Shown one piece after another: positions 107 to 43,748 of a stretch of DNA of 64,000 nucleotides (position 1 is its first letter; each line of letters starts with the position of its first letter). The translations under genes were made by a program, and so were the position numbers. The stretch comes from Escherichia phage JM10, in sequence record PP400777. One strand, 5' to 3'. The notes under the pieces were generated by a model. That model saw nothing but the letters and a program-made list of their open reading frames with translations, had not been told where the DNA came from and did no database searches.

Positions 107-1197
107 CGTTATGTTCGATTGAGCTCGCTAATTCTCAACCCGTTCTCTTATGAACTGCTACATATTACTATGCAGACCAGACTATATCACAATCCCAGAG
201 GGATTCTCCCCATTTCGAGTCGCTTGACCCTACGTCCGAAGACTAGTCGTTGAACCTTGCTTTGCAATTGTCGCCGTGCCATCGTTTATATGTTGATGGT
301 GATAAATCTTTCTTATCACAATATGGACAATTCAATTGAATTCTATTTGGATTTAATTTACATCTGTCATTATGTTTTAGATAAAATCCAGGACCTTTAC
401 CAATGTGACCGCAGAAATCACATGTGATTTCTTTTTGTGCAGGATGGGTTCCGTTCTTAACCATTTCTAATGTTTTTGCTGATGTTCTTTTCTTATGGTC
501 TTCTGATAAGAAATGATGTGAACCGTCATTTACCCGTTTTGATTGAGTTTCTGACTGCATTTTACCACCGCAAAATACATGAGTACCTTCTTTTATAGCT
601 GCAATATTGCGTTCTTTAACTTTTGCAATATGCTCAGCTTGTTGAAAATTATGTATACCTAATGCAACTCTATTTAAATTAGATTTACGCTGTATTTCAC
701 CGTCTAAAAGATGAAATGTACCATTTTCTATCTTAGATTTAATAGAGGCAATATTTTTAGCTCGTACTTCAGGGATATTAAAAATCTGGATTTCTCTAGA
801 TTTTGCGGCTTTAGAAGCTAATTCAGAAATTTCTTCAGGAGAATATTTCATTCTAAGCTTTATAGCATGACAAGCCTGGTAATCTTTTTGAGCTAAATGT
901 ATATCATAATGTTCCTGTATAGAAAGGCACATCAAATTATCTAAATCATTATTTTCACGGTTACCGTCTTTATGATGGATTTCGTATGTTCTTCCATCAG
1001 AATCTTTAGGTATAGGTCCGTTAGCATCTATCCAAATTTTTCTATAGTTCAATTGTGCATCCTCTTAAAAGTATAATCATATTTATATTATACTAATTAA
1101 AGGTGCAAGCAAAACCTTGGCTGCTAGTTTTCCTATAAAGGACTTTCCAGCAATTAAAGGAGTTTTCGATAAACGTTACCGTTTAAAGGCGCATTTT
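107..1197 (-). mobile_element. Group I intron in nrdB (about 1091 nt) carrying an HNH homing endonuclease ORF
   Basis: Exon 1 ORF ends FYVSFA then stop; exon 2 resumes the conserved R2 sequence 1.1 kb downstream; proposed junction (exon ends in U, intron ends in G) restores FYVSFA-C-TFNF; the nrdB intron is a known T-even feature. Confidence 0.65.
243..1052 (-). CDS. I-TevIII: Intron-encoded HNH homing endonuclease, full length (269 aa)
   Basis: HNH motif YEIHHKDGNRENNDLDNLMCLSIQEHYDIH; C-terminal CxxC zinc-finger-like region; located inside the nrdB intron. Confidence 0.7.
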   Translation of the reverse strand: MNYRKIWIDANGPIPKDSDGRTYEIHHKDGNRENNDLDNLMCLSIQEHYDIHLAQKDYQACHAIKLRMKYSPEEISELASKAAKSREIQIFNIPEVRAKNIASIKSKIENGTFHLLDGEIQRKSNLNRVALGIHNFQQAEHIAKVKERNIAAIKEGTHVFCGGKMQSETQSKRVNDGSHHFLSEDHKKRTSAKTLEMVKNGTHPAQKEITCDFCGHIGKGPGFYLKHNDRCKLNPNRIQLNCPYCDKKDLSPSTYKRWHGDNCKARFND

Positions 1198-11086: not shown

Positions 11087-14000
11087 ATGGCCGACATCAA
11101 ACGTAAGTTCAGAGCCGAAGACGGTCTGGACGCCGGTGGCGACAAGATTGTTAACGTAGCATTAGCCGACCGTACAGTAGGTACTGATGGCGTAAACGTT
11201 GACTTCCTGGTACAAGAAAACACCGTTCAAGTATATGATTCTACGCGTGGATATAACAAAGGATTTGTTGTTCTTTATGACAACCGTTTATATCAAGCAA
11301 TAAATGATATCGTGTCTCCTTCCGGGGCATTTAACCTTTTACAATGGCGTGCAGTTCGTACTGATGCACAATGGATAACTGTCGCTTCTGGGACTTATCA
11401 ACTTTCTTCAGGTGAATCGATTTCGGTTAACACTGGTGCCGGCAATGATATGGTTTTCACGTTGCCGAATACGCCGGTTGATGGTGATACTGTTGTTTTG
11501 GCTGATATTGGTGGAAGAACCGGGACAGTTAAAGTACAGATTAACGCGTCTGTGCAGAGTATTTTAAACTTTAGAGGTGAACAAGTTCGTACAGTTTTAA
11601 TGACGCGCCCACGTTCACAACTATTGTTTGTGTTTAGTAATCGTTTGTGGCAGATGTATATTATCGATTATGGTAAAGAATCAATCACTGTTACACCTGC
11701 GACACCATATCAAGCACAAGCAAATGATTTTATCGTTCGTCGTTTTACTAGTGCAGCACCAATCAACATTACACTTCCACGTAATGCTAACAATGGTGAT
11801 ATAATCCACCTAGTTGATTTAGATAAATTAAACCCACTGTATCATACAATTGTTAAAACATTTGATGATACAACGTCTATCGGTGAAGTCGGGACTCATA
11901 TTGCCGAAGGCAGAAATGACTCTGACGCGTTTTTTGTTTTTGATGCTGCAAATAGTTTATGGCGTATACGGGAAGGCGACCAGAAATCGCGTCTTCGTAT
12001 TATCCGTGCGGATTCAAATATTCGTCCAAATGAAGAAGTTCTTATTTTTGGCACAAATAACGCTACAACCGGAACTATTAATCTTACGCTGCCTTCTGGA
12101 ATTTTGAGTGGTGACACTGTTAAAATTTCAATGAACTACATGCGTAAAGGCCAAACAGTAAAAATTAAAGCTGCCGAAGGTGATACAATTGCTTCTTCTG
12201 TTGCATTGCTTCAGTTCCCTAAACGTTCTGAATATCCACCTGATGCTCAATGGGTCTCTGTTACTGAACTAGAATTCAATGGCACTACTTCATATGTTCC
12301 TGTATTAGAATTAGCGTATATCGAAGACACCGTTGCTGGTACACGTTATTGGGTTGTTCAACAAAACGTCCCGACTGTAGAACGTGTTGATGCTGGAACT
12401 GATGCTACACGAGCTCGTTTAGGTGTTATTGCTCTTGCTACTCAAGCGCAAGCAAATGTTGATTTAGAGAATACTCCAGCTAAAGAAGTGGCTATTACTC
12501 CTGAAACGTTGGCAAATCGTACAGCAACTGAAACTCGACGCGGTATCGCTAAAATTGCTACAACAGCACAAGTTAATCAGGATTCTACTGCAACATTTGT
12601 GGATGATACTATCGTTACGCCTAAGAAATTAAATGAGCGTACAGCGACTGAAACTCGTCGCGGTTTAGCAGAAATAGCTACTCAAGCAGAGACTGATGCT
12701 GGGACTGATGATACAACTATTATCACTCCTAAGAAATTACAGGCACGTCAGGGTTCAGAAACTCTGTCTGGTATAGTTAAATATGTATCGACTGCTTCAG
12801 CTACTCCTGCTGCTACTCGTGGAACTGCAGGCACTAACGTTTATAATAAAGACACAACTACGTTAACTATTTCGCCTAAAGCTCTCGATCAGTATAAAGC
12901 GACTTCTACTCAACAGGGTGCTACTATTCTGGCTCTTGAAAGTGAAGTAATTGCTGGTCAATCCCAAGCAGGTTATTCTCACGCTGTAGTAACTCCTGAA
13001 ACACTACATAAGAAAACTTCTACTGATGGACGTATTGGTTTAATTGAAATTGCTACGCAAGAAGAAACTAATGCTGGGACTGATTATACACGTGCAGTAA
13101 CGCCTAAGACGTTAAATGATAGGAAAGCTACGGAAGGATTATCCGGCATAGCCGAACTTGCTACGCAAGTTGAATTTGATACTGGAACTGACGATACTCG
13201 TATCTCAACTCCACTGAAAATTAAAACTCATTTTGATTCTTCTGACCGTACCAGTGTTAATTCTGATTCCGGACTTATTGAAGAAGGAACCTTGTGGAAC
13301 CATTATACTCTTGATATTTCTAAAGCAAATGAAACACAACGTGGCACACTTCGCGTAGCGACCCAGGCAGAATCTAATACAGGAACTTTAGATGATGTTC
13401 TTATTACTCCTAAAAAGCTTTTAGGGACTAAGTCCACTGAAACGTCTGAAGGCGTAATTAAGGTTGCTACTCAGGCTGAAACTGTAACAGGAACTTCTGC
13501 TAATACTGCTGTATCTCCAAAAAATTTAAAATGGATTGCGCAGAGTGAACCTACCTGGGCAGCTACTACTGCGATAAGAGGTTTTGTTAAAACTTCATTC
13601 GGTTCTATTACATTTGTTGGCGACGATACTCAAGGTAGTACACAGGACCTGAATCTTTACGAGAAAAATAGTTATGCTATTTCTCCATATGAATTAAATC
13701 GCGTATTAGCAAATTATTTGCCATTGAAAGCTAAAGCTGTAGATAGTAATTTATTAGATGGACTAGATTCATCTCAGTTCATTCGTAGGGATATTGCACA
13801 GACGGTTAATGGTTCACTAACCTTAACCCAACAAACGAATCTGAGTGCCCCTCTTGTATCATCTAGTACTGCTACGTTTGGTGGTTCAGTTTCGGCAAAT
13901 AGTACATTAACTATTTCTAACTCTGGAACAGCAACTCGTCTGATTTTTGAAAAAGGACCTCAAACTGGAACTAACCCAGCGCAGACGATGACTATCAGAG

Positions 14001-23288: not shown

Positions 23289-23921
23289 TCACAGTACGTT
23301 AGTTACAAGGGTAATGATTTCTTTGGACACATTAGGGAAGTCAATGTAAGTATATTTACCACCGATCTTAATCTTAACATCGTTTTCAAGAGAAGTAAAC
23401 AGCTTTGATTCAGTTTCTGACATGTTGTATGCAAAGATTCTAAGAGAACCATCTCGACGAATTTCGATCTGACGAATACCTAGAACTCGTTTTGCAAATC
23501 GAACTTCCAAGTTACTACGGTTTTCACCAATTTCTTTAACTTCAACTTTATCTTTAATATTTTCAAAAACAAAGTTTGCTAATTCATGCATTTCAGGAGT
23601 AACTCCACGTGCTTTTCTAGTGTTACGTTTCTGAAGAAGTTCCGGAGCATTTTCTTGGGCAAAGAGGTCTGCAGCTTTTTGGATAATATCCATTGCTTCG
23701 CCTGTTGCTACAAGTCCATCACCGGATTTTTCGACTAAACCTTTCTTAATCAATACACCAATGTTAGAGTTAACAACCGATGCATTGTATTCCGCTTCCA
23801 GAGCTTCACGGACATTGGCAGCAGTGGTGAAGTTGTTCTTAATGATATAAACCATTATTGCAGCAGTTTTTTCATTCAGAGCGTTTTCAGAAGCTTTGAT
23901 GATGTAAGTAACTTTAGACAT
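23289..23921 (-). CDS. motA: Middle transcription activator MotA
   Basis: MSKVTYIIKAS... NSNIGVLIKKGLVEKSGDGL... ; 210 aa; position upstream of asiA cluster and downstream of 52. Confidence 0.85.
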   Translation of the reverse strand: MSKVTYIIKASENALNEKTAAIMVYIIKNNFTTAANVREALEAEYNASVVNSNIGVLIKKGLVEKSGDGLVATGEAMDIIQKAADLFAQENAPELLQKRNTRKARGVTPEMHELANFVFENIKDKVEVKEIGENRSNLEVRFAKRVLGIRQIEIRRDGSLRIFAYNMSETESKLFTSLENDVKIKIGGKYTYIDFPNVSKEIITLVTNVL

Positions 23922-24029: not shown

Positions 24030-24106
24030 CTAATCATGTTTGTCCAACCAATACAGCCAAATCACTAGTGCAGCTATTGCACCGAGAAATCCTAAGGCTA
24101 GGGCAC

Positions 24107-25432
24107 TCAAAGTGCCTCCAAGTCTTTAGTGTACTCTGTCACAACATCAGTAGACTTCCAATACTCATTTTCTTCTTTCTTAGCTTTAGCTTCTTCTGCT
24201 AGTTTACGTGCTTCATCGGAAGTGATATGGAAGATGTTAAGACCTACCAGTTTATCGACATGTTCTTTATACATTTCGATTTGTGCTAGCTCTTCAGTCA
24301 AAGCTTTACGGGTCTTGCCTTGAATCACAATTTCACCGTTGATAACTTTTTTGATGAAGTGTGCCTTAGCAAAAGCCAGTTTAAATGCTTTTTCAGATTC
24401 AAGGATTTTATTGTCAATACGTTTCTGAACGTAAGTCTTACGGACTTCAACAAAATCTTTGATTAAGTCCACTACGTTATCGTAGACCGCTAATTTACCC
24501 TTTTCATTAATCACTGCGATGTTTTGTGAACGACGTTCGATGAGACTAAAATCTTTCATGATTTTTTCATGACGTAGCTCTTCATCATCAGGAAGCGAGT
24601 ACTCTTTACGGAACTTCACCTTAAACCCAAAGCCGTGTTCACCACAATCATCTTCCCATGAGATTAGACCTTTGTCTTCCAACGGGTCGAGAACCTTACT
24701 CACATACGTTTCACGGTCGAATTTATATGGGATTTCAGTTATCTGCATTTGAGTGCGAGATGTGAACTTATACGTTCCGTGAATCTCATAACGCCCATCA
24801 ACTTCATGTACTTCACCACGGAATTCCGGGAATTCAACTTTTGGCTTAGTGACATTTTTACCTTGAAGAGCTTGTAATACAGCCTTTTTGACTGATTTAA
24901 AACTATGAGGCAGAATATTTGTTGCGTAACCGGTTGCAATACCAGAGACGCCATTCAAAAGAACTGTCGGAATAATAGGAAGATAGAATTTTGGTGGAAT
25001 GTGTTCTTTATCTTCATGAGCTGGAGCATATTCAGTATCTTTATATACGTTATAGAAATTTTTACTTACACGAGCAAAAATATAACGAGATGCTGCAGCT
25101 TTTTGAACTGTTCGAGAACCAAAGTTGCCTTGGCCATCTAACAGTGGATAGTTGTTGTTCCATGTGTTAGCCATCAATGCACCTGCATCTTGTGCAGAAG
25201 ATTCTCCATGATGATAACCTAAATCTGCAACACCGCCTGCAATTGACGCAAGTTTATGAAATTTTTCTTTATTACCACGAGCCAAATCTAACGCACGATG
25301 AACCACAAAACGTTGAACCGGCTTAAATCCATCAATCATGTTTGGGATTGCACGGTTTTCAACGGTGTACATAGCATATGCTAAGGCTTCGTTATCAATA
25401 ATACTTTTTAGATTACGAGAATTCAATTGCAT
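24107..25432 (-). CDS. 52: DNA topoisomerase II medium subunit gp52 (GyrA-like)
   Basis: 441-aa ORF; T4 gp52 size and position. Confidence 0.88.
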   Translation of the reverse strand: MQLNSRNLKSIIDNEALAYAMYTVENRAIPNMIDGFKPVQRFVVHRALDLARGNKEKFHKLASIAGGVADLGYHHGESSAQDAGALMANTWNNNYPLLDGQGNFGSRTVQKAAASRYIFARVSKNFYNVYKDTEYAPAHEDKEHIPPKFYLPIIPTVLLNGVSGIATGYATNILPHSFKSVKKAVLQALQGKNVTKPKVEFPEFRGEVHEVDGRYEIHGTYKFTSRTQMQITEIPYKFDRETYVSKVLDPLEDKGLISWEDDCGEHGFGFKVKFRKEYSLPDDEELRHEKIMKDFSLIERRSQNIAVINEKGKLAVYDNVVDLIKDFVEVRKTYVQKRIDNKILESEKAFKLAFAKAHFIKKVINGEIVIQGKTRKALTEELAQIEMYKEHVDKLVGLNIFHITSDEARKLAEEAKAKKEENEYWKSTDVVTEYTKDLEAL

Positions 25433-25436
25433 ATTT

Positions 25437-25577
25437 TCACCATATTAATGAACGAATAACCATTATAACATCTGAAATGAAAAGCACTACTTGGATTAGT
25501 CCAAACATCACACCGTAGTACAGAACCGTAAGCAACGACAAGAGCCCGAAGGCTCCTGCTAAGATTTTCTTAATCAT
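25437..25577 (-). CDS. Small hydrophobic protein (46 aa), not in ORF track
   Basis: MIKKILAGAFGLLSLLTVLYYGVMFGLIQVVLFISDVIMVIRSLIW; between ndd and 52 where T4 carries small genes such as ac and stp; start overlaps the stop of the next small ORF (TAATG). Confidence 0.45.
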   Translation of the reverse strand: MIKKILAGAFGLLSLLTVLYYGVMFGLIQVVLFISDVIMVIRSLIW

Positions 25578-25723
25578 TACTCGCCTTTTAACACATTAAG
25601 AAGAGCTAAGACCGCTAAGGTACCTTGTGATACCGCCTGTTGAAATACTGTTGTTTCGCCTGTAACTAAAGTGCTAACGAATAAAAACGACCAACACAGC
25701 AATGCAATAATCCATGCTACCAT
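25577..25723 (-). CDS. Small hydrophobic protein (48 aa), not in ORF track
   Basis: MVAWIIALLCWSFLFVSTLVTGETTVFQQAVSQGTLAVLALLNVLKGE; translationally coupled to the downstream small ORF. Confidence 0.45.
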   Translation of the reverse strand: MVAWIIALLCWSFLFVSTLVTGETTVFQQAVSQGTLAVLALLNVLKGE

Positions 25724-25775
25724 TTTAATTACCTCAAAAATAAATTAAAGGCCCAACTTAATAGGCCCGTATAAA

Positions 25776-26222
25776 TTAGTAACTCTGAAGAATGAATTTG
25801 AAGTTATCAGCCAGAAGACGGTTCATTTCAGTGAGTGTTTGATATTCTGATGTATGATTGCGAGTGAATGCCAGAGCCAATTGTCCTTTACCATAACCAG
25901 TGGTCAGTGGTTTCATGTTCTTAGCTGCAACAAAGATTACATCATATTCAATATTGTTAGTGCCCATAGTACGGGCTAGTTGCGAACGGCCTTGACGAAT
26001 GTGAGAAAGAATTGCATCCAACCCTTGTTTAGAACGTTGACGTCCTACAAAGAATCGTGCTGCTACTTGTCGCCAGTCAGATGAACCTTTAACAAAGAAG
26101 TAAAAACCTTCACGAGAACGAAACTCTTTAGAAACTTCAGAACCGTATTCGCCATTACGAACTACTGCAACAACTTCACCGCCAACTGCCAGAAGGTCTT
26201 TACGAGTTAAATATTTGGACAT
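25776..26222 (-). CDS. ndd: Nucleoid disruption protein Ndd
   Basis: ...[92 protein letters not shown]; 148 aa. Confidence 0.85.
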
Positions 26223-26298
26223 GCTAATTTCCTCAATTGATTAATGTTTTTGTAATCCATGAGAGCATTATACTCTGCTCTCAAGAGTTTGTACAATT

Positions 26299-26520
26299 TT
26301 ATTCGGCCATATCAGAACGTTCAAAAAGCTCTTCAACAGTTAAACATTCAGTGTCATCTTCAATAAAGAATCGAGTCCAACACGTTGGGGCGATACAGTT
26401 ATGAGTTTGTCCGGCGATAGAAGCTACACGAATAAGCTGCTGACCATTATTCAGAACAAATTTTTCACCAATTTCAACATCTTTAAAAAGCTTAGCCATT
26501 TTGTATTCCTCATGTTTCAA
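26299..26520 (-). CDS. Hypothetical small protein (73 aa)
   Basis: ORF between ndd and the rIIB-proximal genes. Confidence 0.45.
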   Translation of the reverse strand: MKHEEYKMAKLFKDVEIGEKFVLNNGQQLIRVASIAGQTHNCIAPTCWTRFFIEDDTECLTVEELFERSDMAE

Positions 26521-26569
26521 TAGGACTACTATATCATAGTCCTACTTAGTTGTAAACACTTTTATGAAA

Positions 26570-27046
26570 TTAAAGATGAAGATACCACCCGTTGTAGTTG
26601 CTCTTGCGGATGATTTTCTTTAGGTCTTCATGGTCTCCCACGAACTTTATAGAATAAGAGAAGACGTCAGGTGAGGTTTCTTTGACATTCAATATAATAA
26701 TACAGTCAGCGACTCGATGATTAAGGAAGGGCCCTATGTTGATTCCGTTGCCACCCGGATAATCACCACTGTATCCTGTGGTAACCGAAATCCATTTAGA
26801 ATCTATCTGGTGTGTCTTGACTTCTACACGAATTCCACAATACTTGGGATGGGCTAACACGTCCCATGCATACGTGTACGGGTCTTCTACGTCTTCAATA
26901 CCTTTGTTAACATATCCGTCTAGCCAATTTGCTACTACATACTCTGCAAAGACCGCAACCTTACAACGTCGAACAACGTCTTCTTTTATTTGACCTGGAT
27001 CTTGTTTCAACGAGTACCGAGCAGTATCAGCAATCTTCACCTTCAT
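26570..27046 (-). CDS. Hypothetical protein (about 158 aa; occupies the position of T4 denB)
   Basis: Listed 206-aa ORF overlaps the upstream gene by 128 nt; trimmed to the internal ATG (MKVKIADT...). Assignment as endonuclease IV is by position only. Confidence 0.4.
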   Translation of the reverse strand: MKVKIADTARYSLKQDPGQIKEDVVRRCKVAVFAEYVVANWLDGYVNKGIEDVEDPYTYAWDVLAHPKYCGIRVEVKTHQIDSKWISVTTGYSGDYPGGNGINIGPFLNHRVADCIIILNVKETSPDVFSYSIKFVGDHEDLKKIIRKSNYNGWYLHL

Positions 27047-40987: not shown

Positions 40988-41139
40988 AATATTTTCCTCT
41001 GTCTTACGGACGTTAGGTCATTTAGCTGATAAGCTTATAGTATCATGCCCTCAGGTAGTGTACACTCTTTTTTCATAAAATGCTTTAATTTTTTATGTGT
41101 TATAATGGTTCTGAGTTCCATCCGGTTATTCCAATTCAG

Positions 41140-43424: not shown

Positions 43425-43748
43425 TCATTCACAGCTCCCTGAGCTTGAACCACAATCAGAATAACTTGACCCAGAATCACCAGGCCAAGACGATACGTAT
43501 GAATGATTATAACTTGAAGAGCTTGAAGCATTAACCTGTTTTGTTTTTGGACGAATAACTTCTTCCATCATGCCGTCACCAATGTATTCCCAACTTTTTT
43601 CGTGTGTATCAGGAATAGGCATCATACCTTCGCCTGGTTTAACAGCAAACAACTTCTTCAGCATCGTAAGCATTAATTGTTCCTCGAACAAAACGAACAC
43701 CACCGTCATCCCAACGGATTTCGGCATTAAATTTGACGTCTTCACCAT
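43425..43748 (-). CDS. Hypothetical protein with Ser-rich C-terminal tail
   Basis: C-terminus ASSSSSYNHSYVSSWPGDSGSSYSDCGSSSGSCE; N-terminus overlaps the next ORF in another frame, true start uncertain. Confidence 0.4.
   Translation of the reverse strand: MVKTSNLMPKSVGMTVVFVLFEEQLMLTMLKKLFAVKPGEGMMPIPDTHEKSWEYIGDGMMEEVIRPKTKQVNASSSSSYNHSYVSSWPGDSGSSYSDCGSSSGSCE

Follow-up and report, generated by a model that had tools for sequence, protein, structure and literature searches.

Orthologues of the T4 genes ac and 52.1 between ndd and gene 52 of Escherichia phage JM10, with putative control signals of gene 52 inside 52.1

In bacteriophage T4, the interval between ndd and gene 52 is annotated in the order ndd-stp-ac-52.1-52. 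Deletion of T4 ac leads to acriflavine resistance, as does the G38R change in Ac, and expression of ac alone sensitizes Escherichia coli to acriflavine and ampicillin (bioRxiv 10.1101/2025.06.30.662393). The mechanism proposed in that preprint, which contains no direct measurements of binding or efflux, is insertion of Ac into the inner membrane and a block of AcrAB-TolC (bioRxiv 10.1101/2025.06.30.662393), and this efflux model was taken up in a later paper (PMC13250531). A GT7-like deletion of T4, which removes ac together with codons 1-31 of 52.1, is viable (PMC9712115); ac and 52.1 are both dispensable in T4, which grows in the laboratory without 52.1. For middle promoters such as P52, the consensus is a TAnnnT -10 element preceded, at a distance of 12 ± 1 bp, by a MotA box with a TGCTT core (PMC2988021). 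The start of T4 P52 is 165227 according to Table 1 of the Hinton review, in which the entry reads "65227" and stands between those for 153011 and 166702 (PMC2988021).

Here, the corresponding interval was analyzed in a 64,000-nt stretch of Escherichia phage JM10 (record PP400777), hereafter the window, which comes from a Mosigvirus (an RB69/JS09/mar005P1-like T-even phage). The explanation that we favor, and regard as very probable, is that the two small genes of this interval are the Mosigvirus orthologues of ac and 52.1, that they form a coupled early unit, and that the DNA of 52.1 doubles as the control region of gene 52.

Identity of the two small genes

According to the ORF listing, exactly two minus-strand ATG ORFs are present between ndd and gene 52. 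The initial annotation had placed here two small hydrophobic ORFs of 46 and 48 aa with a one-base TAATG overlap, and this description was confirmed to the base: on the minus strand (...GGC GAG TAA TG ATT...), the A at 25577 is common to the stop codon of one frame and the start codon of the other. The gene order in the window is ndd-ac-52.1-52, with the following features.

25776..26222, minus strand: ndd (nucleoid disruption protein), the upstream neighbor (PF06591, E=4.3e-89; phrog_1102)
25749..25768, minus strand: terminator-like hairpin with a T-rich tail in the ndd-ac gap (scan match, GGGCCTATTAAGTTGGGCCT then TTAATTTATT)
25731..25735, minus strand: Shine-Dalgarno sequence GAGGT of ac, 7 nt 5' of the ATG (read from the sequence)
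25577..25723, minus strand: ac, 48 codons, encoding the 48-aa Ac protein MVAWIIALLCWSFLFVSTLVTGETTVFQQAVSQGTLAVLALLNVLKGE (phrog_2501; annotation of relatives; match to T4 Ac)
25437..25577, minus strand: 52.1, 46 codons, encoding a 46-aa DUF7396 predicted membrane peptide MIKKILAGAFGLLSLLTVLYYGVMFGLIQVVLFISDVIMVIRSLIW (PF24129; phrog_3595)
24107..25432, minus strand: gene 52, topoisomerase II medium subunit, the downstream neighbor (PF00521, E=4.7e-78; phrog_551)
23289..23921: motA (PF09114 and PF09158; phrog_1345)

By sequence and position, the 48-aa ORF is the orthologue of T4 Ac (UniProt P18924; phrog_2501). It matched phrog_2501 over its full length (E=8.7e-22), and BLASTP against T4 Ac gave 37% identity over 35 aa (E=2e-7), with a TH57 protein bridging the two (54% identity); conversely, tblastn of T4 Ac on the window returned 25711..25622 (E=0.001). 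The two proteins are similar in size (48 aa here and 51 aa in T4), both follow ndd and overlap the start of 52.1, and they share the predicted helix-break-helix architecture and a W...T...V(F)xQAxxQG motif, which includes the glycine whose G38R change inactivates T4 Ac. In the alignments from Klebsiella phages to T4, W11, T18, V26, Q29, A30, Q33, and G34 were invariant, and the window G34 aligns with T4 G38. There are also differences: the overlap with 52.1 is 8 nt in T4 and 1 nt in the window, the C-terminal ND of T4 Ac is missing from the window protein, and no stp precedes the window ac.

Ac is strongly hydrophobic (GRAVY 1.26). Its AlphaFold2 model consists of helices 2-21 and 25-47 with a break at T-G-E (pLDDT 76.6), the polar motif TGETTVFQQAVSQG joining the two predicted hydrophobic helices, and this matches the ESMFold model of T4 Ac, which is also two-helix (bioRxiv 10.1101/2025.06.30.662393). 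When 1.84 billion cluster representatives were searched exhaustively with phmmer, just two Ac clusters were returned, both of T-even phage peptides, and a word-indexed search returned four near-identical proteins; neither search produced bacterial or distant relatives of Ac. The solved structures (PDB-wide phmmer, E<=10), NCBIfam, and the PADLOC defense models gave no meaningful matches, and no AcrZ chain was returned for Ac in the PDB-wide phmmer search at E<=10. E. coli AcrZ, a 49-aa peptide that binds AcrB, is a functional analogy only: like Ac, it is a small hydrophobic inner-membrane peptide, and Ac has been proposed to act on AcrAB-TolC. The differences are that AcrZ, with a single transmembrane helix, enhances export, and that Ac, with two predicted helices, is a proposed inhibitor and shows no sequence similarity to AcrZ.

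The 46-aa ORF is, on similar grounds, the orthologue of T4 gp52.1. Its product matched PF24129 (DUF7396) at 79.7 bits, against a cut-off of 27, over residues 1-46 of 46, and it also matched phrog_3595. The window protein is 71.7% identical to T4 gp52.1, and tblastn of the T4 protein on the window returned 25577..25440 (E=6e-17). Both are 46 aa long with invariant YYG, VLFISD, SL, and W, and both genes lie directly upstream of gene 52 and contain P52. In contrast, residues 7-18, in the N-terminal third, are unrelated in sequence, yet this region is hydrophobic and hairpin-encoding in both phages. The protein is strongly hydrophobic (GRAVY 1.76), and its AlphaFold2 model is one uninterrupted 44-residue helix (residues 2-45, pLDDT 96.8), although a monomer model leaves room for a bend into a hairpin within a membrane. 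Thus, the single transmembrane-like segment first ascribed to each ORF is only an approximate description. Matches to 52.1 were found in 896 phage records, all of phages of Enterobacterales; our literature search for DUF7396 found no paper on its function.

The initial annotation had compared the site with that of T4 ac and stp. This was right for the 48-aa ORF and wrong for stp. T4 Stp, the 26-aa PrrC activator, resembles the present ORFs as a small early peptide of the T4 ndd-52 interval, and stp lies between ndd and ac in T4, which is what would recommend the second ORF as an stp-like peptide acting on host restriction or anticodon-nuclease systems. However, tblastn with two Stp sequences found no stp anywhere in the 64-kb window (the best hit, E=0.29, lay elsewhere), and Stp is unrelated to either ORF. 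The 46-aa ORF is 72% identical to gp52.1, and it differs from Stp in both size and hydropathy (a hydrophobic 46-aa protein compared with a hydrophilic 26-aa one). The Stp-like candidate was rejected, and we give this explanation practically no weight.

The two genes are also not new. The 48-aa ORF is annotated as "acridine resistance protein (Ac)" in JK42, SA79RD, APCEc01, mar005P1, and others, and the 46-aa ORF as "hypothetical protein" in JK42, SA79RD, APCEc01, and others; PHROG families exist for both, as does Pfam DUF7396 for 52.1. In several GenBank records, among them those of RB18 (MH553563), T2 (MH751506), and phiE142 (KU255730), the sole feature under the 52.1 match is labeled 'acridine resistance protein'. 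A 401-nt query covering the pair matched 153 phage records, nearly all Mosigvirus, and 148 of the 153 were at least 95% identical. At the nucleotide level, the region is 98-99% identical to Mosigvirus genomes that carry the Ac annotation for the 48-aa ORF.

Two further observations concern the neighborhood. The denB-ndd.1 interval of the window (26499..26570) is about 70 nt long, and in JK42 and SA79RD it holds three extra small ORFs of 87, 28, and 36 aa (positions 219-802 of locus L001), an indel polymorphism among near-identical Mosigviruses. Downstream of gene 52, an unannotated 26-codon hydrophobic ORF (LSALALGFLGAIAALVIWLYWLDKHD, 24030..24110, minus strand) begins with a TTG that overlaps the gene 52 stop codon by 4 nt. 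It has GGAGG 4 nt 5' and a strong terminator hairpin 3', is conserved in JK42 and SA79RD, and sits where T4 has motA.1; with it, three coupled small membrane ORFs would flank gene 52.

Conservation, coupling, and the ac slot

The ndd-52 interval was collected from 37 loci, which include seven named genera. 52.1 was present in 37/37 loci at a length of 45-46 codons, with its stop codon 4-6 nt before the gene 52 ATG, and it lies directly before gene 52 in Tequatrovirus, Mosigvirus, Jiaodavirus, Dhakavirus, Gaprivervirus, Kanagawavirus, and other lineages. For 52.1, pN was 0.05-0.31 and pS 0.35-0.77, with dN/dS about 0.07-0.3; between genera, synonymous sites were saturated (pS 0.6-0.98). The sole indel across the seven genera was one whole codon. 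In codons 14-30, which are outside all of the DNA signals described below, the numbers of invariant nucleotides at the three codon positions were 5/10/0 of 17, and the invariant LYYG of gp52.1 is encoded by varied codons (CTG TAC TAC GGT, CTA TAT TAC GGA, and ATG TAC TAT GGA).

ac evolves faster than 52.1, with an uncorrected pN/pS of about 0.5-0.7, and its invariant nucleotides by codon position were 16/21/5 of 46. Both frames are open at the same place in phages with saturated synonymous sites, and variation is concentrated at third positions. For 52.1, these patterns reflect selection on the protein, and ac, too, shows the coding pattern. The frames had been expected to fail in related phages if the genes were spurious, and both are kept.

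The start of 52.1 is overlapped by the stop codon of the upstream ORF, by 1, 4, or 8 nt, in every locus, in line with the coupling first proposed for the two ORFs. The window 52.1 is preceded only by a weak AAGG/GAG, and T4, IME08, RZ, and MY742 are among the lineages without a 52.1 Shine-Dalgarno sequence. Because the overlap is kept in every locus and the Shine-Dalgarno sequence is missing in several lineages, termination-reinitiation coupling into 52.1 is, as read from these sequences, a conserved feature.

The distribution of Ac is patchier than that of 52.1. Across lineages, the ac slot is filled by two-helix hydrophobic proteins of 43-57 aa, which fall into at least four families without relation to one another. 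Three slot types are not Ac (a 53-55-aa GVWxP type, a 43-44-aa type, and a 57-aa type), and replacement occurs within single genera, for example within Gaprivervirus, where TH57 differs from RZ and CJ20. Among loci L004-L037, examples of slot ORFs are as follows.

L006, 1047-1208: slot ORF
L007, 1040-1204: slot ORF
L005, 1076-1207: slot ORF
L004, 1031-1204: slot ORF

A common origin of the slot peptides, Ac, and gp52.1 was rejected at the sequence level, with hhalign probabilities all below 2%.

Signals for gene 52 inside 52.1

The 141 bp of 52.1 would double as regulatory DNA for gene 52, carrying a stem-loop, the middle promoter P52, and a Shine-Dalgarno sequence.

25538..25559, minus strand: stem-loop GCAGGAGCC-UUCG-GGCUCUUGU, 52.1 codons 7-14 (minimum free energy -16.3 kcal/mol)
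25462..25489, minus strand: predicted MotA-dependent middle promoter P52, 52.1 codons 30-39
25486..25482, minus strand: TGCTT of the P52 MotA box, the core of the 10-bp box 25489..25480
25467..25462, minus strand: P52 -10 element TATAAT, separated by a 12-nt spacer from the 10-bp MotA box
25437..25441, minus strand: gene 52 Shine-Dalgarno sequence GGTGA, in the last Trp codon and stop codon of 52.1 (TGG TGA aaat ATG)

The sequence TGCTTTTCATTTCAGATGTTATAAT at 25486..25462 is an exact match to TGCTT-N14-TATAAT. The strict pattern TGCTT-N12-15-TATAAT occurred at five sites in the window, compared with 0.43 expected, and the four further sites are probably other MotA-dependent promoters.

1087-1111, minus strand: TGCTT/TATAAT match
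13302-13327, minus strand: TGCTT/TATAAT match
41081-41106, plus strand: TGCTT/TATAAT match
43506-43530, minus strand: TGCTT/TATAAT match

The predicted promoter closely resembles T4 P52, which works by MotA/AsiA sigma appropriation: the TGCTT box, the 12-bp spacer, the TAnnnT -10 element, and the homologous codons are all shared, and motA is present in the window. They differ in the -10 element, which is TATTAT in T4 and TATAAT here. The T4 start is mapped, and the homologous TATTAT (codons 37-39) predicts a +1 of 165227, equal to the mapped position; the start in the window would lie at about 25455. The oriA/soc region presumably lies elsewhere on the T4 map. Identification of the P52 region with T4 oriA was rejected because the legend of Figure 1 of the review places soc near oriA.

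Codons 31-39 of 52.1 (GTG CTT TTC ATT TCA GAT GTT ATA ATG) are nearly nucleotide-invariant across genera, with third positions frozen at 5/9, compared with 0/17 in codons 14-30. The invariant VLFISDVIM core of DUF7396 is thus in large part the footprint of the predicted promoter. Because the core coincides with P52, its conservation would be at the DNA level as well as at the protein level. At the end of the gene, the arrangement of TGG-stop, 4-6 nt, and the gene 52 ATG was found in every lineage examined.

The stem-loop begins 18 nt after the 52.1 start codon. Per-lineage shuffles and synonymous-codon randomization were used rather than column-wise covariation because the register of the stem shifts by a few nucleotides between lineages. 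Against dinucleotide shuffles, the window stem-loop had z=-3.1, and z ranged from -3 to -4.3 across the window, T4, JD18, and L035. When codons were randomized synonymously, support was strong in T4 (p<0.001), RZ (p=0.001), and the window (p=0.002, approximately), intermediate in L035 (p=0.024) and L031 (p=0.029), and weak or not significant in JD18 (p=0.07), MY742 (p=0.08), and K65 (p=0.25). T4, JD18, L035, and Kanagawavirus-type lineages have hairpins of other sequence, encoding other residues, at about the same position, and the region keeps hydrophobic residues though its sequence changes completely. Homologous stem-loop sites are as follows.

L003, 1818-1834: stem-loop
L004, 1222-1241: stem-loop
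L035, 720-740: stem-loop

A T-rich tract lies 3' of the hairpin. The window tail TTGTCGTTGCTT narrowly fails the T-run rule of the terminator scan, the site passes the scan in JD18 and L035, and it is annotated as a terminator in SA79RD. No Rfam family matched the hairpin region at E<=1. On this sequence evidence, the stem-loop is probably a partial early terminator or attenuator ahead of P52, which is how delayed-early/middle genes are usually arranged in T4. At codon 14, the window encodes Ser (TCG, 25536..25538, minus strand), and all other Mosigvirus copies seen encode Leu (TTG). The Ser14 codon lies at the 3' edge of the hairpin, where it shortens the possible stem and interrupts the T-rich tail.

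Expression of the pair and weighing of explanations

Leftward early transcription would pass through ndd and on into gene 52, with ac and 52.1 at the end of this unit. The scans found no sigma-70-like or MotA-type promoter for ac in the 52-nt ndd-ac gap, and the promoter scan found an early-type promoter upstream of ndd.

26295..26267: early-type promoter upstream of ndd

Since the gap holds no promoter match, ac and 52.1 are expected to be transcribed by read-through of the weak hairpin after ndd, a site that carries a rho-independent terminator in the annotation of SA79RD. The classification of the T4 ac and 52.1 RNAs as early agrees with such read-through (PMC9697503, supplementary file 4). 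ac would be translated from its own GAGGT site, and most translation of 52.1 would come from ribosomes that finish at the ac stop codon and start again on the overlapping ATG (TAATG). With its stop codon 4 nt before the gene 52 ATG, translation of 52.1 may in turn feed ribosomes to gene 52 on early transcripts. gp52.1 itself would be a small peptide of the inner membrane, produced in step with the protein encoded upstream.

The density of signals in 52.1 raises the question of whether its protein matters. If the 46-codon frame were only a gene 52 regulatory spacer that happens to stay open, with no functional protein, then it would be natural that conservation is highest in codons 31-39, the promoter, with 5/9 third positions frozen, that codons 7-14 carry a structure-constrained hairpin, and that TGG-stop forms the gene 52 Shine-Dalgarno sequence. 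Mass spectrometry rarely detects small hydrophobic peptides. In the T4 data, the last column of supplementary file 4 reads 'none' for ac and 52.1, which we take to mean not detected in the proteome (PMC9697503), and the absence of a record of the 52.1 peptide there, together with the dispensability of the gene in T4 (PMC9712115), would also fit a spacer. However, a spacer does not account for the 5/10/0 pattern of codons 14-30 outside the signals, for an LYYG that is invariant as amino acids while its codons vary, or for a length held at 45-46 codons, with only a whole-codon indel, over seven genera with saturated synonymous sites. Nor would it keep the ATG always overlapping the upstream stop codon or the hairpin region hydrophobic despite complete sequence change. 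We consider a spacer without a functional protein very improbable.

A milder version, in which 52.1 is mainly a leader ORF whose translation matters, bringing ribosomes to gene 52 and melting the hairpin, with the peptide secondary, deserves more attention, although we still find it unlikely. In all lineages the stop codon lies 4-6 nt before the gene 52 ATG with the gene 52 Shine-Dalgarno sequence inside the ORF; the 18-nt distance from start codon to hairpin and the frequent lack of a 52.1 Shine-Dalgarno sequence, which leaves the gene dependent on the upstream ORF, point the same way. Yet a pure leader needs neither the invariant YYG, S43, L44, and W46 nor a fixed length. In addition, P52 transcripts start downstream of most of 52.1, so middle-mode expression of gene 52 does not use the leader. 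The account of 52.1 as a protein gene that also carries the control region is retained.

An elaboration of this account is that the ac/52.1/52 junction is a translation-sensing attenuator, in which ribosomes moving on from the slot gene into 52.1 would keep the hairpin from forming; only without this traffic would it fold and halt early transcription ahead of gene 52. The slot peptides would be coupled to the conserved 52.1, possibly their common membrane partner. We offer this as a long shot.

For Ac, the T4 data are the guide. Ac would be a two-helix inner-membrane peptide that raises the acridine content of infected cells. Although the window Ac is only 37% identical to T4 Ac, the same activity is expected, since it keeps the T4-equivalent glycine and the surrounding motif. 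By homology with T4 and T2 Ac, it probably raises intracellular acridine, the wild type conferring sensitivity rather than resistance, which makes the product name "acridine resistance protein" a misnomer. As to how it does so, a block of host AcrAB-TolC efflux, argued from T4, seems to us the likeliest mechanism, at about even odds. It is also conceivable, though doubtful, that Ac makes the envelope more permeable to acridines, by raising influx or by damaging the membrane in a general way. The very small size of Ac, its two predicted hydrophobic helices, and its lack of similarity to solved proteins, AcrZ chains included, speak for this. Acriflavine is a canonical AcrAB-TolC substrate, which we count against a permeability effect. 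As the introduction of the efflux preprint describes, mutants in T2 pr and T4 ac were classically interpreted in terms of increased dye uptake (Silver); the preprint itself gives no direct pump data (bioRxiv 10.1101/2025.06.30.662393). However, ac expression also sensitized cells to ampicillin, which its authors read as loss of efflux (bioRxiv 10.1101/2025.06.30.662393), and the later paper adopts the efflux model (PMC13250531).

The initial suggestion of membrane-acting host-interaction peptides therefore survives in part: the 48-aa ORF is ac, and the pair is not a new host-interaction module. ac, 52.1, P52, and the terminator prediction are already in public annotation or the literature. What would be new, speculatively, is to read the hairpin as an attenuator and the replacement of Ac by unrelated slot peptides as a cassette-like exchange. 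In practical terms, ac and 52.1 are both catalogued for T-even phages and tend to be lost to short-ORF filters, and the overlap of the DUF7396 core with P52 matters when function is predicted for the family. If the AcrAB-TolC block is true, Mosigvirus Ac and the unrelated slot peptides would be a natural panel of phage peptides targeting envelope machines.
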